Shown: one piece after another, positions 3 through 16,719 of the stretch | Layout of the letters: every line of letters begins with the position of its first letter | Position numbering within the stretch: the first letter of the stretch is position 1 | Source of the DNA: an uncultured archaeon | GTDB taxonomy: Archaea > Asgardarchaeota > Lokiarchaeia > Sigyniarchaeales > SOKP01 | DNA length: 16,993 bases | Direction of reading: 5' to 3' | NCBI GenBank assembly: GCA_964493715.1 | Contig: CAZBPC010000073.1 | Location: 1-16,993 of the forward strand | The notes under the pieces: generated by a model | What the model was told of the DNA's origin: nothing | The model's input: only the letters and a program-made list of their open reading frames with translations | Databases searched by the model: none | Position numbers and translations under genes: made by a program

Positions 3-746
3 TATTCCATCTTAAAAAAGCTCATAGAAAAAGGATGTGTAAAAAAAGGCCCCTCATCGAAGGATGCTCGTAAACCCAAGAAATTTATTGCTATTGAGCC
101 GAAACAGTATTTTGAATTAATAATGGATAAGACGCAATCAAAACTTGATGAATTAGACGAATTTAAAGAAACTATCTTAATAAATTTAAATAATATATTT
201 GAAAATGCAAACGAAATAAGCAGAGATAATCTAGAACCTTTCATTATACCATATTTTACGCAATTAATTAAACAAGGGTGGAAAGTGGTTGATCAAAACA
301 TAAAAAAGGGACTAAATCTTCTTGGAGGAGAAATCATGTACGAATATCATCTCACTCCTCCCTTAGAATATCAAAATTTTTTAAAATTAATGGGATTGAT
401 TGCATGTGTATATGACACGAAGGTTGACCTTGAACCCGGCGTTATTAAATTCGTTGTCGGACAAATTAAAAATATAATTAAAGATACGCACTCTCCAGAT
501 TTTGATAAGCTCACAATTACGGAAATGACTTCAAATTTAGAGGGAATTGAAGTTTTCTCGTTAAATATCATCGGTCAAGAAAAAAAATTCAAAAAAACAA
601 TTAAGTTCGGGGAAACCTTAATAATTCCAATTAATAATAAGATTTTTTTTATTTGGGAAGAAATAAATCACGAAACAGGAACAATCCAACGAGAAGAGCT
701 TGGAAAAGCGCTCAATGAATTCAGCAGACCGTTTATCGAAGTTTAA
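3..746 (+). CDS. TrmB-family (winged HTH) transcriptional regulator, 5'-truncated by the window edge
   Basis: The frame of the 123..746 ORF is open back to position 3. It reads YSILKKLIEKGCVKKGPSSKDARKPKKFIAIEPKQYFELI, matching the TrmB wHTH end (Y..L..L..KG.V.....P..F.A..P), and is followed by a coiled-coil-like helix (MDKTQSKLDELDEFKE). The ATG at 123 is therefore internal. Confidence 0.8.
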   Translation, partial: YSILKKLIEKGCVKKGPSSKDARKPKKFIAIEPKQYFELIMDKTQSKLDELDEFKETILINLNNIFENANEISRDNLEPFIIPYFTQLIKQGWKVVDQNIKKGLNLLGGEIMYEYHLTPPLEYQNFLKLMGLIACVYDTKVDLEPGVIKFVVGQIKNIIKDTHSPDFDKLTITEMTSNLEGIEVFSLNIIGQEKKFKKTIKFGETLIIPINNKIFFIWEEINHETGTIQREELGKALNEFSRPFIEV

Positions 747-1734: not shown

Positions 1735-2241
1735 TTACTTTTTAATCTTTATAACGTAATGTAGATAAATCGCGAGTCCAACGATAAATACTCCCAATTC
1801 CATTGTGAATGCCCCAAACCAGGTACTATACACCCCAAGTCCTATTGTCACTGTATCGTCGAAGAGAAGTGGAACTCCAGTAGCAGTAGGGTTTATGGCG
1901 CTCATTGGCCATCCGATGATATCTAAAATCCAGTGGCTGAAAACAAGTATTCCGATAATGATGCTTACGTTGAGAATTTCCATACCCCATAATGTTAATT
2001 TCATCTCTTGACCTTGTTCCTTCTTAAAGTTTAGAATTATTGGTATGAGAACAATAATCAACATTGCACTCATAGTCCAGACCACTGACATGAAAAGACC
2101 ATGACTAGGCCATAATGCGATTATAAAAATAAAAGACAAGATATCAATCAACATTGTACTTACTAATAGAGCCCAAAGTGGTATTTTGGGAAAAAAGTAC
2201 TTTGCTGCTAATCCTATTCCAAAATGAGCTAATGCAGGCAT
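1735..2241 (-). CDS. Membrane-bound metal-dependent hydrolase-like protein (YdjM/YbcI/DUF457-like)
   Basis: Several hydrophobic helices carrying the family motif series: N-terminal His (MPALAHFGIG), MLIDIL, SHGL, SHWILD. Start reassigned from the track's TTG at 2286 to the ATG at 2241 (168 aa) because the first His normally lies near the N-terminus. Confidence 0.75.
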   Translation of the reverse strand: MPALAHFGIGLAAKYFFPKIPLWALLVSTMLIDILSFIFIIALWPSHGLFMSVVWTMSAMLIIVLIPIILNFKKEQGQEMKLTLWGMEILNVSIIIGILVFSHWILDIIGWPMSAINPTATGVPLLFDDTVTIGLGVYSTWFGAFTMELGVFIVGLAIYLHYVIKIKK

Positions 2242-2400
2242 GTTATTTGAATAGGGAAAATGATATTTAAAAAATAAATAGTCCAAATTTTCTCATAGAA
2301 AAAAAAGATCTAATTTCTAGATTTAAGATACATCAACATTAGATTCGTCAATATAATTCAATTTTCCTCTCTGCTCCAATTTCCAGATAAACCATTTCAA

Positions 2401-2437: not shown

Positions 2438-3901
2438 TTATAATCCAAGTTCTTCTAATATTGCTTTGTTTTCTAGTACTTTCTCCTTTGTTAAAGGGAA
2501 ATATTTCCAGAAAACAAGAGTACCTGCGAGCATGACTATTGCTGGAATTATTCCAGAAAGTAAGCGAATTCCTAAAAGCACTAAATTCATGTCACCACCT
2601 GCAGCTGTAACTGCAACTAACATATCCGCATAAGTTTCTTGACCAGGTATAAACCCCGTAAGATTGTGAACGAGAGCAATAAGACCTTCATCGATTGTGG
2701 TGAAAAGTGTAGTAATAAATCCTATAACACCAATGACAATTGCTTTTTGACTTGTTTTCATTTTAACTCCATAATCATCAAATACAATGGCTTGTATTGT
2801 TGTGTATATTAAAGCCCAATAACTTCCCATAACTATCCCAAGAACAAACATCATTATAATTAAAGCTATAAAAGAAAATGCAAAGGTAAACGGGACGAGA
2901 GCTGCAACCAGTAAAAAACCGCCAAGAGAGAGGGTCCATTTATTCCCTTTATTTTTAAGAAATCTTAGCCAGAATGGAATGGATATTACTACAGCAATTA
3001 TTAAAACAGCTAACAAAATCATGTAATCATCTGAGCTACCTTGTAAAATAAATGTGTTAATGTATAGCGAATTCTCTAACAATAAATTGTATGTAATAAT
3101 CCAAGCTGCCAAAAGAAGTAAATAAATTAATACGCTTTTAGTTTTTATAACATTTATTACACTCGTAAAAAAATTTACGTGCTCTTCCTTTTCGGGTATT
3201 TGAAAATATCTCTCTTTAATTATTTTATCCTCCCAATTACCTGGGAGAGATAAAACAGATGTTATAAGTGCAGTTATACCAAATGTTAGAGCCATAAAGG
3301 CAAATCCGGCTTTTGTATCGCCAGTACCAATTAGATAAGGCCCACCTATCATAGCAATTATCGTTGACACAATATCCATTCCTGTCCACCACGGTACTAA
3401 TTTTCGTCGCTCTTCTTCGGTACGAAACAAATCTGGTCGGATTGCACCAACATTAATACCAAAAAATACAAAAAAGGTGTCCTGTAAACTCAATAGTATT
3501 ATTAAATACCAAAAAAGGGGCCAAGGGTTCGTAGTACCGTCAATATCTGGAGCAGCAAAAATAAAATAGAAGCACACGATCCAAGGAAGGAATCCTATAA
3601 GCATCCAAGGGAAGCGTCTACCCAGTTTTTTAGTGAATCTGGTATTTCTATCCATCAAATAGGATAAGAGAGGGTCATTAATTGCATTGTATATCATGAA
3701 TATACTCATGGCTATAAAAATAAATCCCCCATTTAACCCTAAAACTACCTCATAATAATAATACAAAAAGATAGACATTGGAGTGCCTATAACATTAAAA
3801 GCAAATTGAGACGAGCTATTGGAAGCATAACGCCACCAAGGATGTCTTGCTTTTGGAGCTATATATTCTAAATTCGTATTTAAATTTTCTTTTTCATTCA
3901 T
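2438..3901 (-). CDS. MFS transporter, GPH/MelB (glycoside-pentoside-hexuronide:cation symporter) family
   Basis: About 12 hydrophobic segments; NAINDPLLSYLMDR; LGRRFPW; EEERRK after TM4; C-terminal YFPLT. Confidence 0.92.
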   Translation of the reverse strand: MNEKENLNTNLEYIAPKARHPWWRYASNSSSQFAFNVIGTPMSIFLYYYYEVVLGLNGGFIFIAMSIFMIYNAINDPLLSYLMDRNTRFTKKLGRRFPWMLIGFLPWIVCFYFIFAAPDIDGTTNPWPLFWYLIILLSLQDTFFVFFGINVGAIRPDLFRTEEERRKLVPWWTGMDIVSTIIAMIGGPYLIGTGDTKAGFAFMALTFGITALITSVLSLPGNWEDKIIKERYFQIPEKEEHVNFFTSVINVIKTKSVLIYLLLLAAWIITYNLLLENSLYINTFILQGSSDDYMILLAVLIIAVVISIPFWLRFLKNKGNKWTLSLGGFLLVAALVPFTFAFSFIALIIMMFVLGIVMGSYWALIYTTIQAIVFDDYGVKMKTSQKAIVIGVIGFITTLFTTIDEGLIALVHNLTGFIPGQETYADMLVAVTAAGGDMNLVLLGIRLLSGIIPAIVMLAGTLVFWKYFPLTKEKVLENKAILEELGL

Positions 3902-3940
3902 TAGAAATCATCTAATAAAGTTTTTATTACTAAATTTAAC

Positions 3941-3957
3941 TTTGACAAATAATCATA
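3941..3957 (-). promoter_or_regulatory. Putative operator TATGATTATTTGTCAAA (TGAY-N5-RTCA) upstream of transporter 2438..3901
   Basis: Imperfect palindrome lying between a TATA-like TTTATAAA (3980-3987) and the ATG; 13/17 identical to the site at 7928-7944. Confidence 0.45.
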
Positions 3958-4071
3958 GTCCATTCTTTTTGAATCTTTTTTTATAAAGAAGATTTTTACA
4001 TTTTCGTGCAGTTATTAATTTTATATCTAATTAATCTCTTGTAAATCCCTATCAATTATTAATGAAAAATT

Positions 4072-4845
4072 TTAATGATACATGAAGCTCCTGTGAGAAA
4101 TCGATCCATGTTGAAATCCTTCATACACAAATTCAAGTGAATCGTTCAAGTCTTTCATGCCTAAAATATAAAGCATAGGAAGATAGTGTTCATTTGTTTG
4201 GAAACCTTTAGCACTGAGAGGCCAGTTTTCATAATGGATCAAGTTATCAATATCATAGTCACTTATAGCTTGTTTCTGAAGTGTATCGAGTTCTTCAGCC
4301 CATGATAGTGGAGGACCAAATTGATTATTCATGTTGATGTTGCGAAAAGTGTGGACGAGGTTTCCACTTCCAATAAACATTATTCCTTTTTCCCGAAGAG
4401 ATTTTATCTTTTTTCCCAATTCAAAATGATATTCTGGAGGTTTTATATAATCCAGACTAAATTCTATTACAGGGACATTTGCCTCGGGGAAAAGATGTTC
4501 TAGAACGATAGTTGCAGCGTGATCAATCCCCCATTCTATGGATGGTTTTAATATTAGCGGAAGAAAATCGATAATCTCAGTGGCAATCAGTTCACTTCCC
4601 TTTGCAGGATAGACATATTCATAGAATTTAGGAGGAAATCCATAATAATCGTAAATCATCTTAGGATTGTCATCAATTGTTATCTTAGTTCCTGAAGTTA
4701 ACCAATGTGCAGATATTAGGACAATTGCTCGAGGTTTAGGAAGATTTGAACCAAGATTTCGTAAAGAGGTTGTAAACTTATTTTGTTGAAATATGTTAAA
4801 AGGACTTCCATGACCTATGAATAATACGGGCATTTTATCTGACAT
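4072..4845 (-). CDS. ygiD: DODA-type (4,5-DOPA dioxygenase / YgiD, LigB superfamily) extradiol dioxygenase
   Basis: MPVLFIGHGSP, ISAHW, IYDYYGFP, WGIDH, FPEANVPV, GSGNLVH, EHYLP and GSIS motifs; 257 aa. Confidence 0.9.
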   Translation of the reverse strand: MSDKMPVLFIGHGSPFNIFQQNKFTTSLRNLGSNLPKPRAIVLISAHWLTSGTKITIDDNPKMIYDYYGFPPKFYEYVYPAKGSELIATEIIDFLPLILKPSIEWGIDHAATIVLEHLFPEANVPVIEFSLDYIKPPEYHFELGKKIKSLREKGIMFIGSGNLVHTFRNINMNNQFGPPLSWAEELDTLQKQAISDYDIDNLIHYENWPLSAKGFQTNEHYLPMLYILGMKDLNDSLEFVYEGFQHGSISHRSFMYH

Positions 4846-4954
4846 GTATTAGAAACAAATGATCCAAGTAAAAAATTTAAGTTTTATAAATTATAACGTC
4901 ATTTGATTATTTCTTTTCTTCAAATAATGAAAATTTTAGATAACATCTACCAGC

Positions 4955-4978
4955 TTAGAACTAAAGATTTAGTTCTAA
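4955..4978. repeat. Perfect 11-bp inverted repeat TTAGAACTAAA-GA-TTTAGTTCTAA, candidate regulator binding site
   Basis: Read directly from the sequence; lies about 110 bp upstream of the dioxygenase start. Confidence 0.6.
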
Positions 4979-5020
4979 AAGTAATTTCTCCTTCTCATGA
5001 TTCTCACGTTCTTAAATGAT

Positions 5021-5037
5021 AAAAAAAAAATAAAAAA
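5021..5037 (-). terminator. Oligo(T) terminator of transporter 5051..6415
   Basis: A10-T-A6 on the + strand, 14-30 bp past the minus-strand stop. Confidence 0.5.
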
Positions 5038-5050
5038 TGATTGTGTTTAT

Positions 5051-6415
5051 TCACTTCAATTTTCTCATTCGTTCTTCATGAAGTATTTTTAGCTTGGCTT
5101 GTTGTTCAGTGAAGTTTTTATAATTAAGGGGATAGAATTTAAAAATTATTAGTCCAATTAAAAGTCCAATGGCAGGAACTAATGAAATTGAAAGTCTCAA
5201 ACCAAGCAAGGCTTCTGATGTCTGAGTTTCTAATTCCGGGTCAAATCCACTGATTAACTGAACAAGTATTAGAGCTATGGCAGAAAGAATCATTGATAAT
5301 CGCGCAATAAAGGCTCCAATTCCACCATATGTTGCCTCCCGTCTTTTTCCTGTTTTTATTTCATCATAATCTATTGCAGCAGAAATTACTGGCTCTGTCA
5401 TTAATACTCCACCAATTCCAATTCCGGGTAAAAGTCCAATAATTGTTAAACTAATAAAATCACTTGATAGAAAAAGAGGGATCATCCCAATACAAAATAT
5501 GCTCATTGAGAGAGATAATCCAAACTTTGGCCCTTTTTTTCCATAAATTTTCCACCATATTGGTATACCACCCAGAATACCTAGCGCCACTCCAATCATT
5601 GCAAACCCTGCCATTCCTTCATCCATATTTAGAATAAATTTTGCGTAAAGAGGTAAAATCATTAAAGTAAATCCAAAACAAAAATCAAGAAATGCATATG
5701 TTATAGATCCAATAACGAATGGTTTGTTGGAAAGTGATTCTTTAAATGCCTGAAATATAGGTAAGGGTTCATCTATTTGATACTCTTTCTTCTCTTTTGT
5801 TCCTAGAAGGGAGAGATACATTGTAATTGGAATGGTGAGGCCCATTATAACTCCTGCGATTGCCCAACTACCTAATGCAGCAGCGATCATCGAAGGAATC
5901 ATTACCCCGATCATAGACGATAAAAATGCAATCGTATCTTTAATTGCTACGACTGTAGCTCTTTCGCTCTCTTCTTCATACATTTCGGTATATAAAGCGT
6001 TCCAGGCGGTTATTACTATTGTAAATCCCGTGTCGAATAAAAACAGCATTATAAAGCCGTAAAGAAAGACCAAACCTTTATCACTAAATGGAACCATCCA
6101 TAATGCAATAAAACCTATCGTCATTGGTATTGTTCCATAGATTATCCACGGCACACGTCGCCCTTTCTTTGGTTTCAATTTATCCATAAAATATCCAATT
6201 AATGGGTCATTGATGGCATTCCATATTCCATAAAGCATGAATAGAAGTCCGAATTCAATTAGGGAAAGTCCAGCATAAAGCGTATAAAAAGTTAAAAGCC
6301 AAGTACCAATCATGTTGTACGGAAGAGCAGAAGGTACTGCGCCTAGTGAATACAGAAAGTGTCCTAATCGTGAATGGATCCCTTGGATTTTAAATTTCTT
6401 ATTAGATTCCGTCAT
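5051..6415 (-). CDS. MFS transporter, GPH/MelB family
   Basis: WNAINDPLIGYFMDK, GRRVPWI, EESERA, IDYDEIKTGKRREATYGG (classic GPH loop 10-11) and FYPL. Confidence 0.93.
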   Translation of the reverse strand: MTESNKKFKIQGIHSRLGHFLYSLGAVPSALPYNMIGTWLLTFYTLYAGLSLIEFGLLFMLYGIWNAINDPLIGYFMDKLKPKKGRRVPWIIYGTIPMTIGFIALWMVPFSDKGLVFLYGFIMLFLFDTGFTIVITAWNALYTEMYEEESERATVVAIKDTIAFLSSMIGVMIPSMIAAALGSWAIAGVIMGLTIPITMYLSLLGTKEKKEYQIDEPLPIFQAFKESLSNKPFVIGSITYAFLDFCFGFTLMILPLYAKFILNMDEGMAGFAMIGVALGILGGIPIWWKIYGKKGPKFGLSLSMSIFCIGMIPLFLSSDFISLTIIGLLPGIGIGGVLMTEPVISAAIDYDEIKTGKRREATYGGIGAFIARLSMILSAIALILVQLISGFDPELETQTSEALLGLRLSISLVPAIGLLIGLIIFKFYPLNYKNFTEQQAKLKILHEERMRKLK

Positions 6416-6500
6416 AATTTATTACTTTTTTAATTGTGCTAGTTATTACTTGCATCAATAAACCTAATAAATATCATTCATTTTCAAAAAAAAAAGGAAT

Positions 6501-6506
6501 TAGGAG
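6501..6506 (+). promoter_or_regulatory. Shine-Dalgarno-like TAGGAG
   Basis: 6 nt upstream of the ATG at 6513. Confidence 0.5.
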
Positions 6507-6512
6507 TAAAAC

Positions 6513-7673
6513 ATGCTATTATCTAAACGTGAACGAGTATTCAAGGCTCTCGAGCTTGATGGTGAACCGGATAAAGTGCCCATAAATTCGTTCGGTATGG
6601 AACAAACGGGAACTTCGTTCCAAGCGTTTCAAAATTCCGAAGAAATTAAGAAATATTCGAGTTGGGTGCAACCAAAATCATCCCGAAAAAAATATTTTAT
6701 CACTGAACAGCGGTTTTGGAACGTGGATGTCTATTTTATGGATCCTTTTGGCGAAAGAAAAATGAAAGTGAAACGGATTCCAGCACCTGCTGAATATCCC
6801 GATTGTTATCTTACCCCATTAGATGGTGCGATATATAAAATGGTAAAACAAGTTGAAACAGGATTACCATATAGTTGGTATGTTGGGGGATATTATACTT
6901 CCCCTGAAATATTATACACTTACTGGGATCGATATGGAAAACCATCCGAGTTAGTAAACGATAAAGTCAATTATTCTCCTCAAGTATGGCAGAATTTTGT
7001 TGAAGCTATCGAACCATATTTTTATCCAATGGTGAGAATGATGATAAATCCTACTGAATGTCTTCTCAACGGTATCTCCCTTCTACGTGTATCATATTAC
7101 ATGCGAAAAAATCCAAAATTTATTCATGATGTGATGAATGAGTATACTAAGGCAAATATCGAAATTATTAAGAGATGTGCTGAAGCTGGAGTTGATATCA
7201 TCTTCCTTGGCGATGATTTTGGATATAAAGATAATCCTATTTTTTCACCAAAACAATTCCGAGAATTTCTTCTCCCGTATCATAAAAAAATGTATGATAT
7301 GTGCAAGAAAAATGGAATGCTCACGGTACTTCATTCTTGTGGAAAAGTAGACTCTGTTCTCCCGGATCTAGCTGATGCAGGTCTCAATTGCATTCAATCT
7401 TTAGAAGCTTCCGCAGGAGTTGATTTGGCAGGATTAAAGAACACCTTAGGTGATCGATTATGCTTTATGGGTGGTTTAGATTCCACGGGCACGCATATTT
7501 TTGGAAGGCCTCAAGATGTCGAAATAAATGTGAAAAAATGCTTGAAAGATGCTGGTTATGGTGGTGGGTATATAATTGGACCAAGTCATGACATTCTTAA
7601 TATGCCTTGGGAGAACATCTTAGCGATGAGAACCGCAATTGAAAAATATAGAAAATATCCTTTGAAATTTTAG
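6513..7673 (+). CDS. UroD/MtaA-CmuA superfamily (URO-D-like TIM barrel) protein, not HemE
   Basis: N-terminal SKRERVFKAL....PDKVP; LGDDFG; FSPKQFREFLLPY; LHSCG; GGLD; GGGYIIGPSH; PWENILAM. The HemE RQAGR motif is absent. Confidence 0.9.
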   Translation: MLLSKRERVFKALELDGEPDKVPINSFGMEQTGTSFQAFQNSEEIKKYSSWVQPKSSRKKYFITEQRFWNVDVYFMDPFGERKMKVKRIPAPAEYPDCYLTPLDGAIYKMVKQVETGLPYSWYVGGYYTSPEILYTYWDRYGKPSELVNDKVNYSPQVWQNFVEAIEPYFYPMVRMMINPTECLLNGISLLRVSYYMRKNPKFIHDVMNEYTKANIEIIKRCAEAGVDIIFLGDDFGYKDNPIFSPKQFREFLLPYHKKMYDMCKKNGMLTVLHSCGKVDSVLPDLADAGLNCIQSLEASAGVDLAGLKNTLGDRLCFMGGLDSTGTHIFGRPQDVEINVKKCLKDAGYGGGYIIGPSHDILNMPWENILAMRTAIEKYRKYPLKF

Positions 7674-7850
7674 CAAGACTACCAATTAGAATAAGATAGA
7701 GATACTTTTTTTATGTCAAAGACTAAATCATAATATATCAAATCTAAGTGTGAAAAATTGTGGAAAAAATCTCAGATCTTTTAGAAATTAACTTTATCCA
7801 ATTATTGAACTGTTGATTTCCTTAAATAATGAAAAAAAATTTTTTCATTT

Positions 7851-7876
7851 TTTTATTACAAATATTTGTGATAAAA
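7851..7876. repeat. 26-bp near-perfect palindrome TTTTATTACAAATATTTGTGATAAAA upstream of the transporter promoter
   Basis: One mismatched pair only; adjacent to a second inverted repeat at 7828-7849. Confidence 0.5.
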
Positions 7877-7903
7877 TGGACAAATTTATCCTTAAGAAGA
7901 TAA

Positions 7904-7915
7904 CTTATATATAAG
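7904..7915 (+). promoter_or_regulatory. Putative archaeal TATA box (CTTATATATAAG) with purine-rich upstream BRE-like sequence
   Basis: TTATATA preceded by AAGAAGATAAC, about 60-70 bp upstream of the ATG at 7975. Confidence 0.5.
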
Positions 7916-7927
7916 AAAATAATAAAA

Positions 7928-7944
7928 TATGACTAATTATCATA
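7928..7944 (+). promoter_or_regulatory. Putative operator TATGACTAATTATCATA (TGAY-N5-RTCA) over the expected transcription start
   Basis: Imperfect palindrome starting about 23 bp after the start of the TATA-like box; matches the 3941-3957 site. Confidence 0.45.
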
Positions 7945-7974
7945 AAAAGTTATGAAAAATATAGGTATTTATAC

Positions 7975-9408
7975 ATGAGTGAAACAGATTTAGATGTTGG
8001 ATCAAAACATCCTTGGTGGCGTTATGCTTCAAATGGTACGTTCCAAATAACCACGACGGTAATTGGTGCTACTCAAGCCATTTATTTATATTACTACTAC
8101 TTTAACGTGCTTGGGTTAGAACCGGGGCTTATTGTCCTTGCTTTGACAATATTTACGATTTATGATGCAATCAACGATCCTATTATCGGATTTCTCGTTG
8201 ATCGAAATACTCGGTTGACGAAACGATGGGGTCGGCGCTTCCCTTGGATAGTAATTGGAATTGTACCTTGGACTCTCTCCCTCTTTCTAATATTTACCGC
8301 GCCGACCGTAAATCCTGCAAATCCCTGGCCTGTATTTTTTTGGTTATTCGGATCATTGGTTTTAATGGATACGTTTGGATCATTAGTAGGGATCAATGTA
8401 AGTGCCCTCCGTCCAGATTTATTCCGTACTGAAGAAGAAAGGCAAAAGTTAACTTGGTGGTGGACTCCATTAGATATGGTTGCTCAAGCTCTTGGATTCA
8501 TACTTCCTCCATTATTCATTAATCCATATGCTTTAAAGGCAAGTTATGGTTTTATGGGAACCATGATGTCTATGATTTGTCTTATTAGTGCCATTCTTTT
8601 TTTACCCGGCACGACAGAAACCAAGGTCGTGAAAGAAAGATATTTTACGGGACAATACGAATCTTTTAAGTTCTTTTCTGGAATGAAAGAAGTGTTAAAA
8701 TCAAAAAGTTTTATTGTATTTTTCGTAGCGCTTACAACATTCAATATGACGATAAACTTGTTGATGGGTAATGCCCCTTTTGTTACTACTTATCTTCTTA
8801 GGTATGCTGCTGGTGATGAAGTTTTTATATTTATTATATTTATGAGTGGCGCTTTTGTCGCATTTCCTTTCTGGATACTTTATCTTAAAAAAGTTAAAGA
8901 TAATAAGAAAGTGCTCGCTATAGGTGGATTAGCATTTGGAATCGCCTTATTTCCATTAACCTTTTTCCAGACAGAGATAGATCTATATATAATGTTATTT
9001 ATCCTGGGAGTTGCAGTGGGGAGTATGTGGGCATTCTTTTATACTATTATTCAAGCAAGCGTAATTGATGATTTTGTAGCTTCAACAAGAAAAAATCAGA
9101 AAGGAATTCTTCTTGGAGTTTCAACGTTGCTAGGACGGTTAGTTGCCACTCTTGATGAAGGGGTTATGGCTCTGGTACATACTACCACTGGTTTTCCAGC
9201 TGGATCAGTAGATTATGCAGGTTTAGTCACCGCAGTCACGGCTGCTGGAGGAGATATTAATATGGTACTTCTAGGAATAAGACTTCTTTTTGGGATTATT
9301 CCATCCGTCATCATAATTGCAGGTACATTAGTATTTTGGAAGTATTTCCCTCTTACTCAGGATAAAGTATTAGAAAACAAGAGAATATTAGAAGAACTTG
9401 GGTTTTAA
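7975..9408 (+). CDS. MFS transporter, GPH/MelB family; close paralogue of 2438..3901
   Basis: YDAINDPIIGFLVDR and WGRRFPW. Shares HPWWRYASN, RPDLFRTEEER, VTAAGGD.N.VLLGIRLL and AGTLVFWKYFPLT..KVLENK.ILEELG with the 2438..3901 product. Confidence 0.93.
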   Translation: MSETDLDVGSKHPWWRYASNGTFQITTTVIGATQAIYLYYYYFNVLGLEPGLIVLALTIFTIYDAINDPIIGFLVDRNTRLTKRWGRRFPWIVIGIVPWTLSLFLIFTAPTVNPANPWPVFFWLFGSLVLMDTFGSLVGINVSALRPDLFRTEEERQKLTWWWTPLDMVAQALGFILPPLFINPYALKASYGFMGTMMSMICLISAILFLPGTTETKVVKERYFTGQYESFKFFSGMKEVLKSKSFIVFFVALTTFNMTINLLMGNAPFVTTYLLRYAAGDEVFIFIIFMSGAFVAFPFWILYLKKVKDNKKVLAIGGLAFGIALFPLTFFQTEIDLYIMLFILGVAVGSMWAFFYTIIQASVIDDFVASTRKNQKGILLGVSTLLGRLVATLDEGVMALVHTTTGFPAGSVDYAGLVTAVTAAGGDINMVLLGIRLLFGIIPSVIIIAGTLVFWKYFPLTQDKVLENKRILEELGF

Positions 9409-9483: not shown

Positions 9484-12231
9484 ATGATTGAAGAATTAGA
9501 AAATATTTATGATCATCGTTCAATAGAAAAAGAATTGTACGAATGGTGGGAGAAAGAAAGTTTCTTTCGACCTGAAAAATCTCATGAATTAGGTATTACT
9601 GATGAGAATTCTGAAAGATTTTGCATAACAATTCCATTACCAAACGTAACAGGTCAACTCCATTCAGGTCATGGGCTTGTGATTTCCCTTGAAGATTTTA
9701 TGACTCGATATGAACGCATGCGACAAAAAGAAACTCTTTATATTCCGGGTACAGATCATGCCGGAATTGCTACTCAAAGTGTCGTTGTTAGGGAACTATT
9801 AAAACAAGGTATAAATCATAAAGATTTAGGACGTGAAAAATTCGTCGAAAAAGTGTGGGCATGGAAGCATAAATTTCACGCACGAATTACTGAACAATCA
9901 AAAAGAATGGGTATTAGCTGCGATTGGAGCCGGGAATGTTTCACTTTAGACCAAAATTTATCACGAGCCGTCCGGGAGGCTTTCTATAGATTATATCATA
10001 AAGGATTAATATATCGAGGAGAATACATGGTTAATTGGTGCCCAGGAAGGTGTGTTACCGCAATATCTGACTTAGAGACTGAGGATATTGATGAACATGG
10101 GCACCTATGGTATATCAAGTATCCAATTATTAATAAAGCTTGGAAAGGACCCCAATCTCCTTGGGGGAGTGGAAAATGGGCTGAAGGCGCCATAGATTTT
10201 ATTATTGTTGCTACCACAAGACCCGAAACGCTATTAGGTGACACCGCGGTGGCTACAATAAAATCCCATCCCAAATATGCTAAATATATCGGTAAGCGAG
10301 CAATAATTCCGGCTGTTGGTCGTTCTGTTCCAATAATTACCGATCCATTTGTGGATCCCGAATTTGGTACTGGCGCTTTAAAAATAACTCCTGCTCACGA
10401 TCCTAATGATTTTGAAATTGGGAAAAAACATGATTTAGAATTTATCAATATATTTAATGAAAACGCTCAGATTCTCCCTGGCTTTGTTGAAGCTTATACA
10501 GGGTTAGATCGTTTTGAATGTCGGAAAGCAATCTTAAAAGATCTTGAGAAGGAAGGATTATTAACTAATATCGAAACTTATGATCATCCTGAACCACACT
10601 GTCAACGATGTCATGCAATCATAGAACCCCGAGTGTCTATTCAGTGGTTCGTAAAGACAAAACCACTTGCTGGACCAGCAATGGATGCCGTTCGGAATGG
10701 TGAAATAACTATAATTCCTGAAAGAGAACAACGGCGTTTTTTCCTATGGATGGAAAATATCCACGATTGGTGCATATCCCGCCAGCTTTGGTGGGGTCAC
10801 AGAATTCCAGTTTGGTATTGTGATGAATGTGGTGAAGAAATCTGTCCCGAACCAGATGTGGAATCGGTCTCAACTTGTCCTAAATGCAAAAGTTCTAGTG
10901 TTCATCAAGATGAGGACGTGTTAGATACTTGGTTCTCGAGTGGGTTATGGACTTTTTCAACTTTGGGGTGGCCAAATATTGATCACCCTGATTATAAACG
11001 CTTCTATCCAACCGATACAAGAGAAACGGGTTATGATATTCTCTTTTTTTGGGTTGCAAGAGAAATTATGATGGGAATTGAGCTAACAGGAAAATCTCCA
11101 TATCACACTGTTTATTTACATGGTATGATTCGAGACGAAAAAGGGGGAAAGATAAGTAAATCAATGGAAAATATAGACCAATATGATCCACTTATAATTA
11201 TAAAGGATTTTGGAGCAGATTCTCTCCGGTATGTATATATATCAACTAGTATTCCGGGATTAGATATGAATTTAGACCCCAAAAATATCGAGGTTGCTCA
11301 CAAATTCTGTAATAAGATATGGCAAGCATCTCGTTATGTTTTAACTAACATTGAACCTGATGAAAAAGTATATCGAATTGATGAAATTGATCTGAAAAAG
11401 CTAAATTTCCCTGATAGATGGATACTCTCCCGGTTAAACTCCCTGATTCGAGATGTAAAAATTCACATGGATAACTATGAATACTTACAAATGACGAGAA
11501 TAATTAAATTATTTTTCTGGAGCGAATTTTGTGATTGGTACATTGAAATGAGCAAAAATTTTCTCTATGATGATAATTATTCTGAAAAATATATACAAAA
11601 AACGATACTATTACATGTATTAGACACATTCTATAGATTATTACATCCTATCATGCCATTTATCACTGAAAAATTATGGCAAGCTCTCCCAAGTGCTCTT
11701 AAAGAAGTGCCTACGATAATGTATGCTCAATGGCCTAAAGTTAACGAGTCATTCATTGAATCAAAGTTAGAAGAAAGTTTTCTGTTAATGACCGATTTTG
11801 TCCGAGAAGTGAGACGCATTAAACATGATTTCGGAATCCCTTTAAAAAAGCTAGTTCCACTGCAAATTGAGACAAGCAATAAAGAATTATTTGAAATCTG
11901 CAAAAATGAACTGGTGAAGATGGCATTTATAGATGAGGAAAAATTCATAATTGATGACAAAATCGTTCCACCTCCTCAATCAGCACGAATCGTACTCAGT
12001 GGAATACCTGCATTTATTCCACTTTCAGGAATGATTGATATTGAAAAGGAAAAAGTGAGAATCCAAACTTCTCTTGAAAAATCTAAACTCGAGATATCCA
12101 AAATAGAGAAAAAATTACAGGGTCAATTTTCAGAGCGAGCTCCAGAAGAGTTGGTGAAAAGAGAAAGAGAGAAACTTGAAGAATTGAAAATTAAAATCAA
12201 TCAGTTCGAAGACCAATTAAATATTTTGTAA
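9484..12231 (+). CDS. valS: Valyl-tRNA synthetase, bacterial-type architecture with atypical signature motifs
   Basis: PNVTG.LHSGH (HIGH), PGTDHAGIATQ, ATTRPETLLGDTAVA and GTGALKITPAHDPNDF (editing domain), DWCISRQLWWGHRIP, DVLDTWFSS, GYDILFFWVAR, KISKS (KMSKS), FCDWYIE, LLHPIMPFITE, and a C-terminal coiled coil (KKLQGQFSERAPEELV). GAGGA RBS upstream. Confidence 0.96.
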   Translation: MIEELENIYDHRSIEKELYEWWEKESFFRPEKSHELGITDENSERFCITIPLPNVTGQLHSGHGLVISLEDFMTRYERMRQKETLYIPGTDHAGIATQSVVVRELLKQGINHKDLGREKFVEKVWAWKHKFHARITEQSKRMGISCDWSRECFTLDQNLSRAVREAFYRLYHKGLIYRGEYMVNWCPGRCVTAISDLETEDIDEHGHLWYIKYPIINKAWKGPQSPWGSGKWAEGAIDFIIVATTRPETLLGDTAVATIKSHPKYAKYIGKRAIIPAVGRSVPIITDPFVDPEFGTGALKITPAHDPNDFEIGKKHDLEFINIFNENAQILPGFVEAYTGLDRFECRKAILKDLEKEGLLTNIETYDHPEPHCQRCHAIIEPRVSIQWFVKTKPLAGPAMDAVRNGEITIIPEREQRRFFLWMENIHDWCISRQLWWGHRIPVWYCDECGEEICPEPDVESVSTCPKCKSSSVHQDEDVLDTWFSSGLWTFSTLGWPNIDHPDYKRFYPTDTRETGYDILFFWVAREIMMGIELTGKSPYHTVYLHGMIRDEKGGKISKSMENIDQYDPLIIIKDFGADSLRYVYISTSIPGLDMNLDPKNIEVAHKFCNKIWQASRYVLTNIEPDEKVYRIDEIDLKKLNFPDRWILSRLNSLIRDVKIHMDNYEYLQMTRIIKLFFWSEFCDWYIEMSKNFLYDDNYSEKYIQKTILLHVLDTFYRLLHPIMPFITEKLWQALPSALKEVPTIMYAQWPKVNESFIESKLEESFLLMTDFVREVRRIKHDFGIPLKKLVPLQIETSNKELFEICKNELVKMAFIDEEKFIIDDKIVPPPQSARIVLSGIPAFIPLSGMIDIEKEKVRIQTSLEKSKLEISKIEKKLQGQFSERAPEELVKREREKLEELKIKINQFEDQLNIL

Positions 12232-12539: not shown

Positions 12540-14681
12540 CTATTTTTTAAGAATTGCAATTATTGGTGCTAATGAAGGGATTTCTACCTCAAATCGACAG
12601 ATGTTGTCTGAATCATGATTTACTTTCAAAGTAGATATCTTCTGATTTATACCGTTATAAATTTCAATATCTTTAACTTCTAAGCCATATTTCATAGAAT
12701 TAAATTGAATTACTGTTTTTTGGGAGCGACTACTTAAATTATAGGCTGTAATAACACCTAACTTATCAATTTCATCCACATGAAGGTGAATTTCTTGAGT
12801 TATGCCATAAAATATTCCCTGCGTTAAGTAATGTTTAATCTTTTTATAAAGAATCATCGCTTCTTTTAATGCTTTATATTTTACACTATCTCTATTGCTC
12901 AATCCACCAATACCCAAATGTCTCGCAAGAGAGGCATACCACCAGAATTGTAACATATTGTCATTATCGCTATTTTCATTTATATGTAAATATAGAGGAA
13001 TAGAGTAAGCTAAATTATATTCAAAAAGTTGAATAGCTCTTCTCGATATTAAATCCTGCATTGGGTTCCACATGCATTCAAACCCCCAATTCTCGTCGAA
13101 ACTATGAGGGAGATTATGTTGAAAATACAATGGATGTCTTGGTTTAACACCTCTATCATGAGCTTCTATTAGAATATTAGGATACTCTTTTTTTACATTT
13201 TGAATTACTTTTAAAATGTTTTCCGCGTGGGTCTGTCTTCTCATTGGAACTTCATGACTATGATCCTTACTAAAACAACCGAGATCCTCTGCCATAAAAT
13301 TTGAAAGCTCGGTGAAATCAAACATAAAAAAATCTATTCCCTCCTTGGCTAATTCTAATATTCTCCGAGTTTTTTCCTTTACCCAATGGTCATTGGCACA
13401 AACGCAATAAAGATTAATATAAGGGTCAGCTACAACCTTTACTCCCTTTTTAGATCTCAGATAAAATTCGTCAGATTCATTTACTCCTTCAAAATTCATC
13501 ATTAGATGCAATGCTAATTTCAATCCATATTTCTCATGAATATTATGCGAAAATACCTTTAAGGGACCGAATCTTTCTGCATTCCAAATTTCAGATCCTA
13601 GTGCGGTATTCCAACCTGGATCCAGATATAAGCATTCGGCGCCAATATCTTTAGCTAATTTAGCTTCTTCGAATAATTGTTCTAATGTATAGACCTCGAA
13701 CTCCGTACTATCGACAAAGAAACCAGTCTTTTCTGCAACCCATCCTAAATTATACAATTCATTCCAATGAACTGGTGGCTCATAGTCTTTCTTGAATTTA
13801 TGACCTTGTTCCTCAAGATGGCTTCTATAGAGGTAATAACCTTCTTTGTAGTCCCCAGTGTAGATAGAATATTTAGTAACTCCAAAAGAGTAACTTTGAT
13901 TCGGCTCTAAAGTGGTAGCAGTTTCAGGATTTCCTTCATAAAGATATACTCCTCCAAAAAGAATATTGACGTCTTCAGCACCTCTTCCTAGTAAAATACT
14001 TGCTATCCGCTGAAACCGGGAATATTCCATTTGAGTTTGATTATACTTGCAAACAAGTAATCCTCCTTCCTTATTGCCCCATAACCAACCTTCAGCACAA
14101 TATCCGGGCATTTCTGTCTCTTTAGCAACCCATGCTCCAAAAACTATATCATTTGCAGTGTAATTTTCTTTCCTCTTATCATCTCCATATCCCATATATC
14201 TTCGGTAAGGTATGGAAGTTAAGCAATATTCATCTGAATGATTATTCCACCCAGTATATTGCTTAAAAAGAGTGTTTTTAAAACCAAGATTTATCATTCC
14301 GAACCTGATTTTTTTATCACCAACATTAGTTAATGTTATACGTTCCTCTAACCACTTGCTATCCTTTGCTAGCTTAAACTCTTGTGTCATACTTATATCA
14401 GTTTCATCGAATTTACCTTTTACAATTAACTTATCAGATCTTTTTTCATAAATCTCTCTGGAAGATAGCTTTTTAGCTTTTAAATCTGAATCTAAATGCA
14501 ACAAATAGACAAATCGAGATCCTTTCTTCTTAGATGTCAAAATTCTATAATGATAATCTTGATCTGCATAAATCACATTATTGATTTTACTATGCATCTT
14601 ATAAATAAATCCGGCATTCTCATCATTTTGAATCTCGAATGTCCACCAATCATTTGTTAGAATATAATCTTTCTGAGTCAT
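12540..14681 (-). CDS. Divergent glycoside hydrolase clan GH-D (GH36/alpha-galactosidase-like) protein
   Basis: Beta-rich N-terminal domain, then PPVHWNELY, LFEEAKLAKDIGAECLYLDPGW, WNAERFG, GLKLALH, GIDFFMFDF, KKEYPNILIE and a C-terminal beta domain. This order matches GH36 (P..WN.W, LDDGW, RFP.G, G.DY.K.D). ATG at 14681 preferred over TTG at 14690. Confidence 0.65.
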   Translation of the reverse strand: MTQKDYILTNDWWTFEIQNDENAGFIYKMHSKINNVIYADQDYHYRILTSKKKGSRFVYLLHLDSDLKAKKLSSREIYEKRSDKLIVKGKFDETDISMTQEFKLAKDSKWLEERITLTNVGDKKIRFGMINLGFKNTLFKQYTGWNNHSDEYCLTSIPYRRYMGYGDDKRKENYTANDIVFGAWVAKETEMPGYCAEGWLWGNKEGGLLVCKYNQTQMEYSRFQRIASILLGRGAEDVNILFGGVYLYEGNPETATTLEPNQSYSFGVTKYSIYTGDYKEGYYLYRSHLEEQGHKFKKDYEPPVHWNELYNLGWVAEKTGFFVDSTEFEVYTLEQLFEEAKLAKDIGAECLYLDPGWNTALGSEIWNAERFGPLKVFSHNIHEKYGLKLALHLMMNFEGVNESDEFYLRSKKGVKVVADPYINLYCVCANDHWVKEKTRRILELAKEGIDFFMFDFTELSNFMAEDLGCFSKDHSHEVPMRRQTHAENILKVIQNVKKEYPNILIEAHDRGVKPRHPLYFQHNLPHSFDENWGFECMWNPMQDLISRRAIQLFEYNLAYSIPLYLHINENSDNDNMLQFWWYASLARHLGIGGLSNRDSVKYKALKEAMILYKKIKHYLTQGIFYGITQEIHLHVDEIDKLGVITAYNLSSRSQKTVIQFNSMKYGLEVKDIEIYNGINQKISTLKVNHDSDNICRFEVEIPSLAPIIAILKK

Positions 14682-14709
14682 TTTAATCAACTTCTAAATA
14701 GAGTAGGTT

Positions 14710-15843
14710 TTAACTAATTGGGTACTGCCCATATTTTTTTGTTGTGGAAATCATTGTTAGAACGTTCTCAACTTTGCATGAATTTGTAATGTCAGTACAA
14801 GCACTTAAAATGTAGCCTCCTCCTCTACCCGCATCAAGAATGCACTCTTTCACCATATTTATCACGTCATCCTTTGTGCCATAAGGTAATAATTGAGAAA
14901 CATCAATATTGCCTATTAGACATAATCTATCTCCATAAACTTCCTTTAAATGTTTTAAATTCATGCCTGACATAGGTTCTAATGATTCTACACCGCTGAA
15001 TCCAGCTTCTATTAATCCTTCAAAATAAGGTTCAGTAAATCCATCTGAGTGGAAACAGACATATTTTCCGGCTTTTTTTAATATTTTGATAGCTTCCTTA
15101 TAAGCGGGAATAATAAGTTCTTTATGATATATTGGATTTATCATAGTTGTACCCTTCAAAGCTGTATCATCACATATAAAAAAGATCTCAAAATCCGTTT
15201 CAGCACTCAATTTAGCTGCATCTACCAATTTCTTTTTTCTAAGATCAATATATCGCTTAATTTTAGCTTTATTTTTTCTTATTAACTTTATTAGTAATCC
15301 TAGACCCATTCCCATCCACATGGATTCTAAAATAGGATCGAGATGAGTACAAGGTACAAATTCATCAGTAGGAAATTTCCTCAGCTTTTTGTTCACTTTT
15401 GTAGCAAAATCAGGGGCTTCATCCCATTCAATAGAGAAGTAAGTATCATAAAAGTAGTCAGCCATTTCTTCGTTAGTTATGTAATTTCCATAATAATAAC
15501 CAACATCATTCGGATCAGTAGAAGTGTGCTTTAGATAGATTCTACCATTATAATCGATATATTTATTATCATCATCCAATTTCGGTAAGGGGTGGTATTG
15601 CATGTACTTCTGTGGAATATAAACTGGAAACGCATTAAATCCCCATGCAGCATCAAATCCTAACTTGTACTCTACATTAAAATCTCGATTTAAAAGCTTA
15701 TATTTTCTGTCCCAATTATAAGAATCTCCCCAATAAGCTTCCAATCGCTCTTGGAATTTAGACATTACCACTTGGCAAAAAAGCGGGATTCTATCGGGTT
15801 CTTCGTGATTTAAGGTTTTGATAAGTCTTTCTCTTGTATTCAC
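14710..15843 (-). CDS. UroD/MtaA-CmuA superfamily protein, not HemE
   Basis: NTRERLIKTLNHEEPDRIP, ICDDTA, INP..HKELIIPAY, FHSDG, IGNID, GGGYILSAC and ENVLTM. Start is probably the GTG at 15843 (TTG at 15852 is the alternative). The 28-bp gap to the GH-like gene suggests an operon. Confidence 0.9.
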   Translation of the reverse strand: MNTRERLIKTLNHEEPDRIPLFCQVVMSKFQERLEAYWGDSYNWDRKYKLLNRDFNVEYKLGFDAAWGFNAFPVYIPQKYMQYHPLPKLDDDNKYIDYNGRIYLKHTSTDPNDVGYYYGNYITNEEMADYFYDTYFSIEWDEAPDFATKVNKKLRKFPTDEFVPCTHLDPILESMWMGMGLGLLIKLIRKNKAKIKRYIDLRKKKLVDAAKLSAETDFEIFFICDDTALKGTTMINPIYHKELIIPAYKEAIKILKKAGKYVCFHSDGFTEPYFEGLIEAGFSGVESLEPMSGMNLKHLKEVYGDRLCLIGNIDVSQLLPYGTKDDVINMVKECILDAGRGGGYILSACTDITNSCKVENVLTMISTTKKYGQYPIS

Positions 15844-15996
15844 ATAAATCAAACTCTATTATCCCTTAATTAATATTAATGAATATTGAGTGTTATTTAA
15901 ATTCATTTTGAAATCGGGATTATAAGATCTTTATTAATATTTTAAAATCATCGTCTTTTTAAACCATTCCTTCAATTTCTTACTAACCTTATATAT

Positions 15997-16719
15997 ATGG
16001 GTTTGACTATGAAAAATAAAGGAAAAATTATTGCTCTCCTTATATTAATTGGAATTGCTTCGGTTTTTGGAGTGATTTTTCTTCCTATTTTAGTTGATTC
16101 TCTTGGTCCAAGTCCTAAATTCGTTTCTCATGATTGGATTGAATTAGAAAAAATAGGAAATATCAGTAAATATCATTCTACGATTGGACATGGTTATCCT
16201 GGTGATGATAATCCTACCTCAGACAAACACTATTTCTATCAATACGACTGTTTTACTAATACTACATTGAATATGAAGACTTTTGCTCCTGTGGATGCTA
16301 TAGTAATTAGCATTATGCCTGAAACACACGTTTTATCTAACGGAGAAATCCAAGGTAAACAAATCCATCTGAAATCCATTGAGCATCCTTCCATCGTTTT
16401 TAGAATTTTTCATCAAAACATTGAAACAACAGGATTACAATTATGGCAGATACTTAACGCAGGAGATCAAGTTGGATATTGTGACTTAAGAGAATGCGTT
16501 AATATTGATATCGCGGTATTTCGAGGTTTTAGTACAATTTCTTGGTTTGAGGTGTTGAATCCTGCTGTTATGGCAACATATGAAAGCCGCGGAATTACAT
16601 TAGACAATATTATCAAAACGACTGAGCAAATCGCTCAATCCCAAGCAGATGGATATAACTTCTCAAATTATGATCCCTCAGATATTATCAATCTTTTCGG
16701 AACAAGTCCTTGCCCGTAA
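15997..16719 (+). CDS. Membrane-anchored/secreted hypothetical protein with M23/LytM-like (duplicated hybrid) features
   Basis: Basic N-terminus plus one TM helix (KNKGKIIALLILIGIASVFGVIFLPILV); TFAPVDAIVISI, GKQIHLK, FRIFH and LNAGDQVG resemble the M23 scaffold. Start could be the ATG at 16009. Confidence 0.6.
   Translation: MGLTMKNKGKIIALLILIGIASVFGVIFLPILVDSLGPSPKFVSHDWIELEKIGNISKYHSTIGHGYPGDDNPTSDKHYFYQYDCFTNTTLNMKTFAPVDAIVISIMPETHVLSNGEIQGKQIHLKSIEHPSIVFRIFHQNIETTGLQLWQILNAGDQVGYCDLRECVNIDIAVFRGFSTISWFEVLNPAVMATYESRGITLDNIIKTTEQIAQSQADGYNFSNYDPSDIINLFGTSPCP

Follow-up and report, generated by a model that had tools for sequence, protein, structure and literature searches.

A bacterial-type valyl-tRNA synthetase with leucine in the middle of the proline triplet, shared by a clade of Asgard archaea

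An Asgard archaeon encodes a bacterial-type valyl-tRNA synthetase (ValRS) in which the near-invariant PPP triplet before the NVTG motif is replaced by PLP, and the replacement is common to a well-supported clade of Asgard enzymes. The gene lies in a stretch of 16,993 nucleotides (contig CAZBPC010000073.1; hereafter the window), and its product of 915 residues reads PLPNVTGQLHSGH. Judging from the sequences compared, we put at roughly 0.8 the probability that this is the working housekeeping ValRS of the organism, carrying a tolerated one-step substitution that has been inherited under purifying selection. Among indispensable polyproline motifs, the proline triplet of ValRS is the textbook case, and arguments about the origin of EF-P/IF5A have drawn on it.

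Translation, profile scores and alignment to a solved relative all agree with the initial annotation that the gene encodes a ValRS with PLP in place of PPP. The protein scores 1050.4 bits against the bacterial-type NCBIfam equivalog model NF004349 (cut-off 704), covering positions 2–859 of its 860, and 982.9 bits against TIGR00422 (cut-off 612.1); with the archaeal-type model NF009687 it reaches 552 bits, below the cut-off of 738. PPP before NVTG is a near-invariant feature of ValRS that is not a criterion of the curated models, and the window's enzyme departs from it. The best solved relative is the Thermus thermophilus ValRS (1GAX, E 5.6e-195), with which it shares its architecture from end to end, the C-terminal part included; 1WKA and 1WK9, solved fragments of the editing domain, align to it as well. 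Both class I signatures are present, as HSGH and KISKS, with both His and the Gly of HIGH retained, and so are the CP1 editing-domain motifs TTRPET and GTGALKITPAHD, which are conserved across the clade (Table 1).

Residues 51–63 (nt 9634–9672) are P-L-P-N-V-T-G-Q-L-H-S-G-H, encoded by CCA TTA CCA AAC GTA ACA GGT CAA CTC CAT TCA GGT CAT. In the work of Fukai et al. from 2000, the ValRS pocket is said to be made up of Pro41, Pro42, Trp456, Ile491, Trp495, Asp81 and Asn44. The window's enzyme keeps the 1GAX residues Pro41, which we take to be the one that excludes isoleucine, Pro43, Asn44, Asp81, which presumably binds the amino group, Trp456, Asp490, Ile491 and Trp495; it differs in having Leu for Pro42, Ser for Met51 in the HIGH signature and His for Pro9 in the N-terminal YDP.

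Table 1. Position of valS and of its principal motifs in the window (1GAX, T. thermophilus ValRS)
Feature	Position (nt)	Strand	Remarks
valS, bacterial-type valine--tRNA ligase, 915 aa	9484..12231, stop codon included	+	NCBIfam equivalog scores, 1GAX alignment
His11 (YDP>YDH)	9514..9516	+	Pro in PPP-bearing relatives and most bacteria
PLP replacing the PPP triplet, aa 51–53	9634..9642	+	Leu52 = TTA at 9637–9639, opposite Pro42 of 1GAX Pro41-Pro43
NVTG after the triplet; Asn54 = Asn44 of 1GAX	9643..9654	+	conserved in all four groups compared
HIGH signature as HSGH, aa 60–63	9661..9672	+	S61 opposite Met51 of 1GAX HMGH
PGTDHAG motif, contains Asp81 of 1GAX, conserved	9745..9765	+	
TTRPET motif, CP1 editing domain, conserved	10213..10230	+	
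GTGALKITPAHD motif, editing domain, conserved	10366..10401	+	
DTWFSS, Trp = Trp456 of 1GAX, invariant	10924..10941	+	
TGYDILFFWVAR with Asp490, Ile491, Trp495 of 1GAX, conserved	11026..11061	+	
KMSKS signature as KISKS, aa 556–560	11149..11163	+	
C-terminal PPP (IVPPPQ), aa 829–831, gained inside the PLP clade	11968..11976	+	

The motif was readable in 111 Asgard sequences from a set of 120 homologues plus the query, and these divide into 63 with PLP and 48 with PPP; every readable homologue at least 60% identical to the query is among the 63. A pattern scan of 398 Asgard genomes gave 43 matches, from which six non-ValRS matches were removed (in G017, G359, G026, G018, G152 and G016); the remaining 37, confirmed by sequence context or by position inside a called gene, place a PLP ValRS in 37 of the 398 genomes. 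Across the relatives, the leucine at this site is encoded by all six of its codons (TTA, TTG, CTA, CTC, CTG and CTT). When a FastTree phylogeny of 231 ValRS was computed with the motif columns dropped, all 119 Asgard sequences formed a clade (support 100) in which the PPP lineages diverge first and all 64 PLP sequences group together (support 99), with Leu in each of the 64 rows of the tree alignment. A quick IQ-TREE analysis of 58 sequences returned the same topology, with supports of 100 and 99. The nearest relatives of the Asgard ValRS clade are bacterial sequences, some of them labelled Chloroflexota, and one eukaryote sequence.

Comparison of the window's gene with its four closest relatives yielded dN/dS values of 0.095–0.104 (dS 0.55–1.09). 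In a comparison of four groups, the PLP clade preserves its catalytic, pocket and editing motifs just as well as the PPP clades do, and the near-fixed differences between the two Asgard clades amount to P11H, P52L, A199T and a short insertion. None of P11H, A199T and the insertion is repeated in bacterial PLP clades, and a search for compensating second-site changes shared among independent PLP clades found none, its top columns reflecting bacterial versus Asgard composition. Because the differences are so few and do not recur in bacterial PLP clades, no compensation appears to have been needed.

The HSGH signature, which had also been flagged as unusual, proved to be so: it occurs in 9 of the 111 readable Asgard sequences and in none of the bacterial sequences examined. 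In the tree, its eight rows all fall inside a single subclade of nine tips (support 100). Position 2 of HIGH is elsewhere occupied by L, M, I, F, Q, V, N or A, and a single transition separates the Ser codon TCA from the Leu codon TTA. The alignments indicate that HSGH is recent, sits at a position that varies and is limited to one subclade within the PLP clade, where it would have arisen separately from PLP, and later, by a single Leu-to-Ser transition.

Across the family as a whole, PPP is as close to invariant as first supposed; 149 representatives at 50% identity comprised 140 with PPP, 2 with PLP, 1 with CPP and 6 that were unreadable (partly read by eye). A genome collection scanned for P-[not P/S/T/A]-P-NVTGxLH yielded at least 120 stretches, and PLP was found in 80 of the 80 loci read among the matches listed. 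A much larger metagenome collection held 38 stretches with PSP, PAP or PTP, many of them with a broken upstream frame; these counts come from different collections and are only roughly comparable. The replacement residue would on this evidence almost always be leucine, variants with Ser, Thr or Ala being far rarer. The sampled trees require a minimum of nine (FastTree) or seven (IQ-TREE) changes of motif state. Planctomycetota loci are among the scan matches listed, and the Asgard and Planctomycetota PLP clades are separate on both trees. PLP is here shown to recur in predicted ValRS from archaea and several bacterial groups.

In Planctomycetota, PLP has been published as a natural variant of ValS, with the consensus MIPLP (Brewer and Wagner 2024, Mol Biol Evol, PMC11388002), and the variant is also covered in a 2026 review (PMC13602936). 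Apart from Planctomycetota, the only exception named in the available portions of these two sources is the genome of a cyanobacterium in the 2024 data set. The proviso that PLP might turn out to be an already characterised variant with normal kinetics therefore stands in part: the variant is published, and the same portions give no kinetic characterisation. In a literature search, these were the only two papers found to treat ValS PLP, polyproline and EF-P together, and none was found that links the ValRS proline triplet with Asgard archaea. As far as the 2024 paper is available, Planctomycetota and Asgard resemble each other in the middle Pro-to-Leu change in a bacterial-type ValRS and in its clade-wide retention without any hint in the genomes that the enzyme malfunctions (PMC11388002). 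They differ in that the Asgard host is an archaeon using aIF5A rather than EF-P, that the Asgard PLP has an independent origin, nested in Asgard PPP sequences and far from the clade containing Planctomycetota, and that it comes without loss of the IleRS PP motif, the elongation factor or proteome polyproline.

The closest competitor to inheritance of a tolerated substitution is an archaeal version of Brewer and Wagner's proposal for Planctomycetota that had their EF-P replaced, namely that PLP was fixed by selection because it relieved PPP stalling in valS during a time of weak or replaced aIF5A function. We consider this unlikely, even though the identical substitution at the same site has been tied in print to EF-P disruption (in the available portions of PMC11388002 and PMC13602936), the 7–9 separate occurrences of PLP on the trees suggest a common pressure, and a second conserved proline, P11, has also been lost in the Asgard PLP clade. 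The window's genome encodes an aIF5A with an intact SKSGKHGHAK loop, together with two homologues of deoxyhypusine synthase (DHS). Of 19 genomes with a match, 18 have this same loop and one (G017) has SKAGKHGHAK, and the loop does not track whether a genome has a PLP, a PPP or only an archaeal-type ValRS. Unlike in Planctomycetota, the GPP motif of IleRS is retained in the PLP lineages G020, G008, G012 and G158. Nor is PPP depleted from the proteome, where 64 instances are observed against 48 expected (2680 ORFs of at least 150 aa), and a new PPP has been gained beyond residue 700 in 21 of 62 PLP-clade ValRS, as opposed to 0 of 51 in the Asgard PPP clade. The last two results bear out the earlier remark that simple polyproline avoidance is not at work. 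A link of PLP to loss of aIF5A, DHS or polyproline was thus supported by none of loop, DHS homologues, IleRS GPP and PPP content. A past disruption of aIF5A may since have been repaired.

Less probable still, and in our judgement very much so, is that the PLP/HSGH enzyme has altered specificity or fidelity, is inhibitor-resistant or serves as a specialised second ValRS. It would fit with the position of Leu52 in a triplet described, in the available part of PMC12856214, as shaping Val/Thr discrimination, with the presence of two ValRS types in some relatives and with the rarity of HSGH. Against it stand the low dN/dS of about 0.10, the conservation of the remaining pocket and editing motifs, the retention of Pro41, and the restriction of HSGH to one young subclade at a position that varies widely in any case. 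Searches of the window's genome with TIGR00422 and NF009687 found no second valS above the cut-off and no archaeal-type copy, the other matches being two LeuRS and weaker ORF matches; as this genome is in 160 contigs and IleRS was not found in it either, the absence carries little weight there. The firm cases are two single-contig relatives, G020 and G158, in which the PLP gene is the sole ValRS and is accompanied by an IleRS. The neighbours of valS are genes for MFS transporters, URO-D-like proteins, an SDR and a LigB-like protein, and no biosynthetic or resistance context was found among them. The suggestions made at the outset of a remodelled pocket with altered specificity, of a second, non-housekeeping copy next to a canonical valS, and of an inhibitor-resistance copy are hence not upheld.

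Two ValRS types do occur in the genus. Of its 41 genomes, 14 have the PLP gene only, 14 have an archaeal-type ValRS instead of the bacterial type, and three (G007, G012 and G272) have an archaeal-type-like ValRS alongside the PLP gene, as do the single-contig genomes G153, G085 and G087; in these six, either type may be the main working copy. The archaeal-type ValRS of the sister species (NF009687) presumably has the same function as the window's enzyme and belongs to a different lineage, with about 866 aa and the motif PPPFVSGxLHMGH.

A sequencing or assembly artefact at 9637–9639, in favour of which no point was found, can hardly be entertained, as four other public runs (X2, X3, X4 and X6; compared over 9624–9650 as assembled contigs rather than raw reads, with the possible source run X1 set aside) all have TTA and none CCN, in a strain contig from X4 the unchanged TTA is flanked by synonymous differences at 9636 and 9651, and the presence of PLP in dozens of related genes with differing Leu codons excludes the base-call error that had been thought improbable from the start.

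Inheritance of a tolerated substitution would have proceeded as follows. The middle proline (Pro42 in T. thermophilus numbering) would have changed to leucine once within the Asgard clade, by a single C-to-T transition at the second codon position; TTA is reached by CCN to CTN followed by a synonymous CTA-to-TTA change. Leu52 would have been retained under purifying selection since then. Leucine is the only large hydrophobic one-step neighbour of proline, so the wall of the valine pocket would be preserved, and the enzyme should therefore still activate valine, charge tRNA-Val and clear threonine by editing. That valine is activated and tRNA-Val charged we infer from the sole-copy status of the gene and from purifying selection. 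As a side effect, the valS mRNA would have lost its strongest ribosome-stalling tripeptide. Escherichia coli ValS mutants of the triplet show non-productive ATP hydrolysis and threonine mischarging, according to the portions available of PMC11388002 and PMC12856214; since these mutants are impaired, a fidelity cost of Leu42 is possible by analogy.

More tentatively, and with odds that we place well on the doubtful side, Leu42 might represent a second solution for the ValRS valine pocket, evolved by bacteria at least 7–9 times and by Asgard archaea once, lying one transition from PPP and freeing synthesis of this essential enzyme from EF-P/aIF5A. PLP enzymes might also depend more heavily on post-transfer editing against threonine. 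If PLP enzymes are kinetically normal, the universality of EF-P/IF5A cannot be put down to a constraint from the triplet, and clades in which PLP occurs naturally would be ready-made material for testing this. What is new is that the exception extends to Archaea, to the lineage nearest to the eukaryotes, where it is the sole ValRS of the single-contig genomes G020 and G158, along with its repeated origin (at least 7–9 motif-state changes on the sampled trees) and the near-exclusive use of leucine. A known exception is thereby widened rather than a new kind founded, and it supplies natural enzymes with which to test how far the triplet is required.

Judging from profile scores, the window's valS product is a valine–tRNA ligase (ValRS) of the bacterial type: it reaches 1050 bits against the NCBIfam model NF004349 (cut-off 704) and 552 bits, below the cut-off of 738, against NF009687, which we take to be the archaeal-type valS model. 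The nearest solved structure is that of the T. thermophilus enzyme (1GAX; E 5.6e-195). Counted along the printed 1GAX alignment, Leu52 aligns with Pro42 of Pro41–Pro43, a numbering likewise used in a 2026 review (PMC12856214), and Ser61 with Met51 of HMGH. Re-reading of the window DNA and its translation gave, for residues 51–63, exactly the sequence of the initial annotation, PLPNVTGQLHSGH, in which Pro-Leu-Pro (PLP) replaces the near-invariant Pro-Pro-Pro (PPP) triplet; a PPP is present at residues 829–831. A sequencing error at 9637–9639, which had been considered unlikely for this Leu codon, is ruled out by assembled contigs (not raw reads) from four other public runs, the possible source run being excluded from the comparison: all carry the same TTA, and in one strain variant synonymous changes at 9636 and 9651 flank it unchanged.

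Features of the window in and around valS
Feature	Position (nt)	Strand	Size
valS ORF	9484-12231	+	915 residues
PLP and HSGH motif region	9634-9672	+	residues 51-63
Three MFS_2 transporter and two URO-D-like genes	2438-9408 and 14710-15852		
ORF downstream of valS	12540-14690	-	716 aa
Smaller ORF	123-746	+	
Smaller ORF	1735-2286	-	
Smaller ORF	15997-16719	+	

The valS neighbours comprise MFS transporters, URO-D-like proteins, an SDR, and a LigB-like protein, and they give no sign of the resistance or biosynthetic setting that would suit inhibitor resistance, one of the readings first offered for the motif. The MFS_2 and URO-D-like genes, clustered around valS, could form a set with substrate-uptake and methyltransferase-like roles. 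Neither the ORF directly downstream of valS nor the three smaller ORFs match a Pfam family at E 1e-5.

The best 120 homologues of the window ValRS are all Asgard proteins, labelled Promethearchaeota, Lokiarchaeota, Heimdallarchaeota, Hodarchaeales, and others. With the query added, the motif is readable in 111 of 121 sequences (PLP 63, PPP 48), and every readable match at least 60% identical to the query carries PLP. When 398 genomes of the phylum were scanned with the motif pattern, there were 43 matches; six of these proved to be other proteins, leaving a PLP ValRS in 37 genomes. The window's genus contributes 17 (of 41 genomes), another family of the same order 8 (of 14), and one family from a different class 12 (of 22); the remaining 321 genomes have none. 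Across the matches, Leu at the PLP site is encoded by TTA, TTG, CTA, CTC, CTG, and CTT.

PPP prevails among 149 representatives at 50% identity (140, against two PLP, one CPP, and six unreadable). Scanning one genome per species for P-[not P/S/T/A]-P-NVTGxLH returned at least 120 stretches; all 80 loci among the matches listed are PLP, and all 11 that were profile-scanned are valS above the cut-off. Genome labels point to PLP also in Chloroflexota, Actinomycetota, Acidobacteriota, and Patescibacteria, among others. A complementary search for PSP, PTP, or PAP in a metagenome collection, which is much the larger of the two, yielded just 38 stretches; in many of them stops or unrelated sequence lie immediately upstream, and about nine resemble ValRS by eye. 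Many scan-locus ValRS of about 1080–1134 aa have RYVIMMPLPNVTGALHMGHAMD in common (loci L035, L042-L044, L052, L057, L070, L079, and others). The labels of their assemblies span many phyla (Planctomycetota, Aminicenantes, Binatia, Spirochaetia, Rickettsiales, and Enterobacteriaceae bins), a spread that suggests either transfer or mislabelled bins.

A FastTree phylogeny was inferred from 231 ValRS after removal of the three motif columns. It comprises 114 of the 121 Asgard sequences (those below 850 aa or with an unreadable motif being left out), 64 of the 68 representatives P0122-P0189 (800–1150 aa), 48 of 78 bacterial PLP loci (those whose ORF reaches at least 800 aa), and five genes from relatives. 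Asgard ValRS form a single clade (119/119, support 100), as do the Asgard PLP ValRS within it (64/64, support 99); the sister group of the PLP clade is a PPP clade of 50 members, and three more PPP lineages diverge earlier. Bacterial PLP sequences are scattered over eight other positions, and the tree requires at least nine changes of state. A quick IQ-TREE run (LG+G4) on 58 of these rows gave a matching picture, with supports of 100 and 99 and seven changes. On this placement in both trees, PLP has a single origin within an Asgard clade that was PPP, independent of the bacterial cases. One bacterial PLP clade on the FastTree tree has 34 members. The closest outgroups of the Asgard bacterial-type clade include a eukaryotic PPP ValRS from Klebsormidium nitens (P0126, 1018 aa), beside unnamed and Chloroflexota-labelled sequences (supports 73–97 in FastTree, 92–95 in IQ-TREE).

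PLP in ValS has already been described for Planctomycetota in a 2024 paper (PMC11388002), which links it to EF-P replacement and loss of other polyproline motifs and whose data set also contains one cyanobacterial genome lacking the motif; a 2026 review (PMC13602936) still names Planctomycetota as the place of exceptions. In the literature searched, only these two treat ValS, PLP, polyproline, and EF-P together, and none was found linking 'proline triplet' with 'Asgard'. The Asgard PLP clade, which shares its state with Planctomycetota but has a separate origin, thus appears to be the first archaeal one in that literature. A past disruption of the Planctomycetota kind, with PLP selected to ease ribosome stalling at PPP when aIF5A/EF-P was weak or replaced, is an unlikely account of the Asgard case. 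The window genome has an aIF5A with an intact hypusine-site loop, and two deoxyhypusine synthase homologues were found. Of the 19 genomes with a match, 18 have the loop as SKSGKHGHAK and one (G017) as SKAGKHGHAK, so it does not track ValRS type. Moreover, the IleRS of PLP lineages retains GPP, the proteome holds 64 PPP against 48 expected, and in a third of the PLP-clade ValRS a PPP has arisen at another site of the protein. Unlike that of Planctomycetota, the Asgard PLP comes without the elongation-factor signature reported there.

The initial annotation had also raised a second, non-housekeeping copy. In the window genome (160 contigs; estimated completeness 100%), no valS other than this gene scores over the cut-off, which favours a sole copy, but this absence is weak evidence because IleRS is undetected in the same assembly. 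Of 21 genomes searched, this one and 20 relatives, 12 have an IleRS over the cut-off; the enzyme is likewise undetected in genus members G001, G002, G004, G007, and G011, and only partial in G009. Striking as it is for an essential gene, the missing IleRS here probably reflects incomplete assembly or binning. The single-contig relatives G020 and G158 carry the PLP gene as sole ValRS, plus an IleRS, and single-contig G153, G085, and G087 have a second, archaeal-type-like ValRS beside it. Such second copies can be non-canonical, with PPD for PPP in G153 (L169) and G016 (L032), and HLGF or HVGA for HIGH in G085 (L170) and G018 (L017). Within the 41 genomes of the genus, this one included, 14 have the PLP gene only, five a PPP bacterial-type gene only (bacterial type only, 19/41), 14 an archaeal-type gene only (PPPFVSG, about 866 aa), three both types, and five neither; both types occur on large contigs. 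Such a mosaic suggests a displacement still under way, or that two ValRS lineages were lost differentially. The window genome also has two LeuRS genes (L002, L005, L004): an archaeal-type one of 962 aa (contig C19) and a bacterial-type one split by a contig break (C44:25793-26342 and C45:1-2313), with an in-frame TAA and a gap of ~96 nt past residue 97. Stops occur in the same N-terminal region in relatives (G006:C171, G005:C152, G009:C316).

HSGH had been read as part of a remodelled pocket, a view that finds no support: position 2 of HIGH is L, M, I, F, Q, V, N, or A in other sequences examined, and Ser is limited to a 9-tip subclade around the query (support 100), one member of which is HLGH. 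Among the 111 readable Asgard sequences, HSGH occurs only in the nine closest, query included. The Ser61 codon, TCA, is one transition from TTA, and we see no reason to give HSGH a function. In several otherwise intact Asgard ValRS, Gln takes the place of the final His, giving HLGQ or HIGQ (G252, G262, G268, and G270, loci L155-L158; proteins P0059, P0066, P0113, and P0121; the archaeal-type copy of G010, L031).

The window valS and its four closest genes give dN/dS values of 0.095–0.104 at dS 0.55–1.09, remoter pairs being saturated. HIGH, KMSKS, PGTDHAG, TTRPET, GTG..HD, DTWFSS, and GYDILFFW are equally conserved in the PLP and PPP clades. The only near-fixed differences between the two Asgard clades are P11H, P52L, A199T, and a short insertion, and none of these companions of P52L recurs in the bacterial PLP clades compared. 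Leu is one transition from Pro, at the second codon position, and is the sole large hydrophobic residue among the one-step neighbours of Pro. The list of pocket residues used here is reportedly that of Fukai et al. from 2000. Leu at the Pro42 position would leave the valine pocket with its hydrophobic wall and would need no partner change elsewhere in ValRS, and editing would stay available for clearing threonine.
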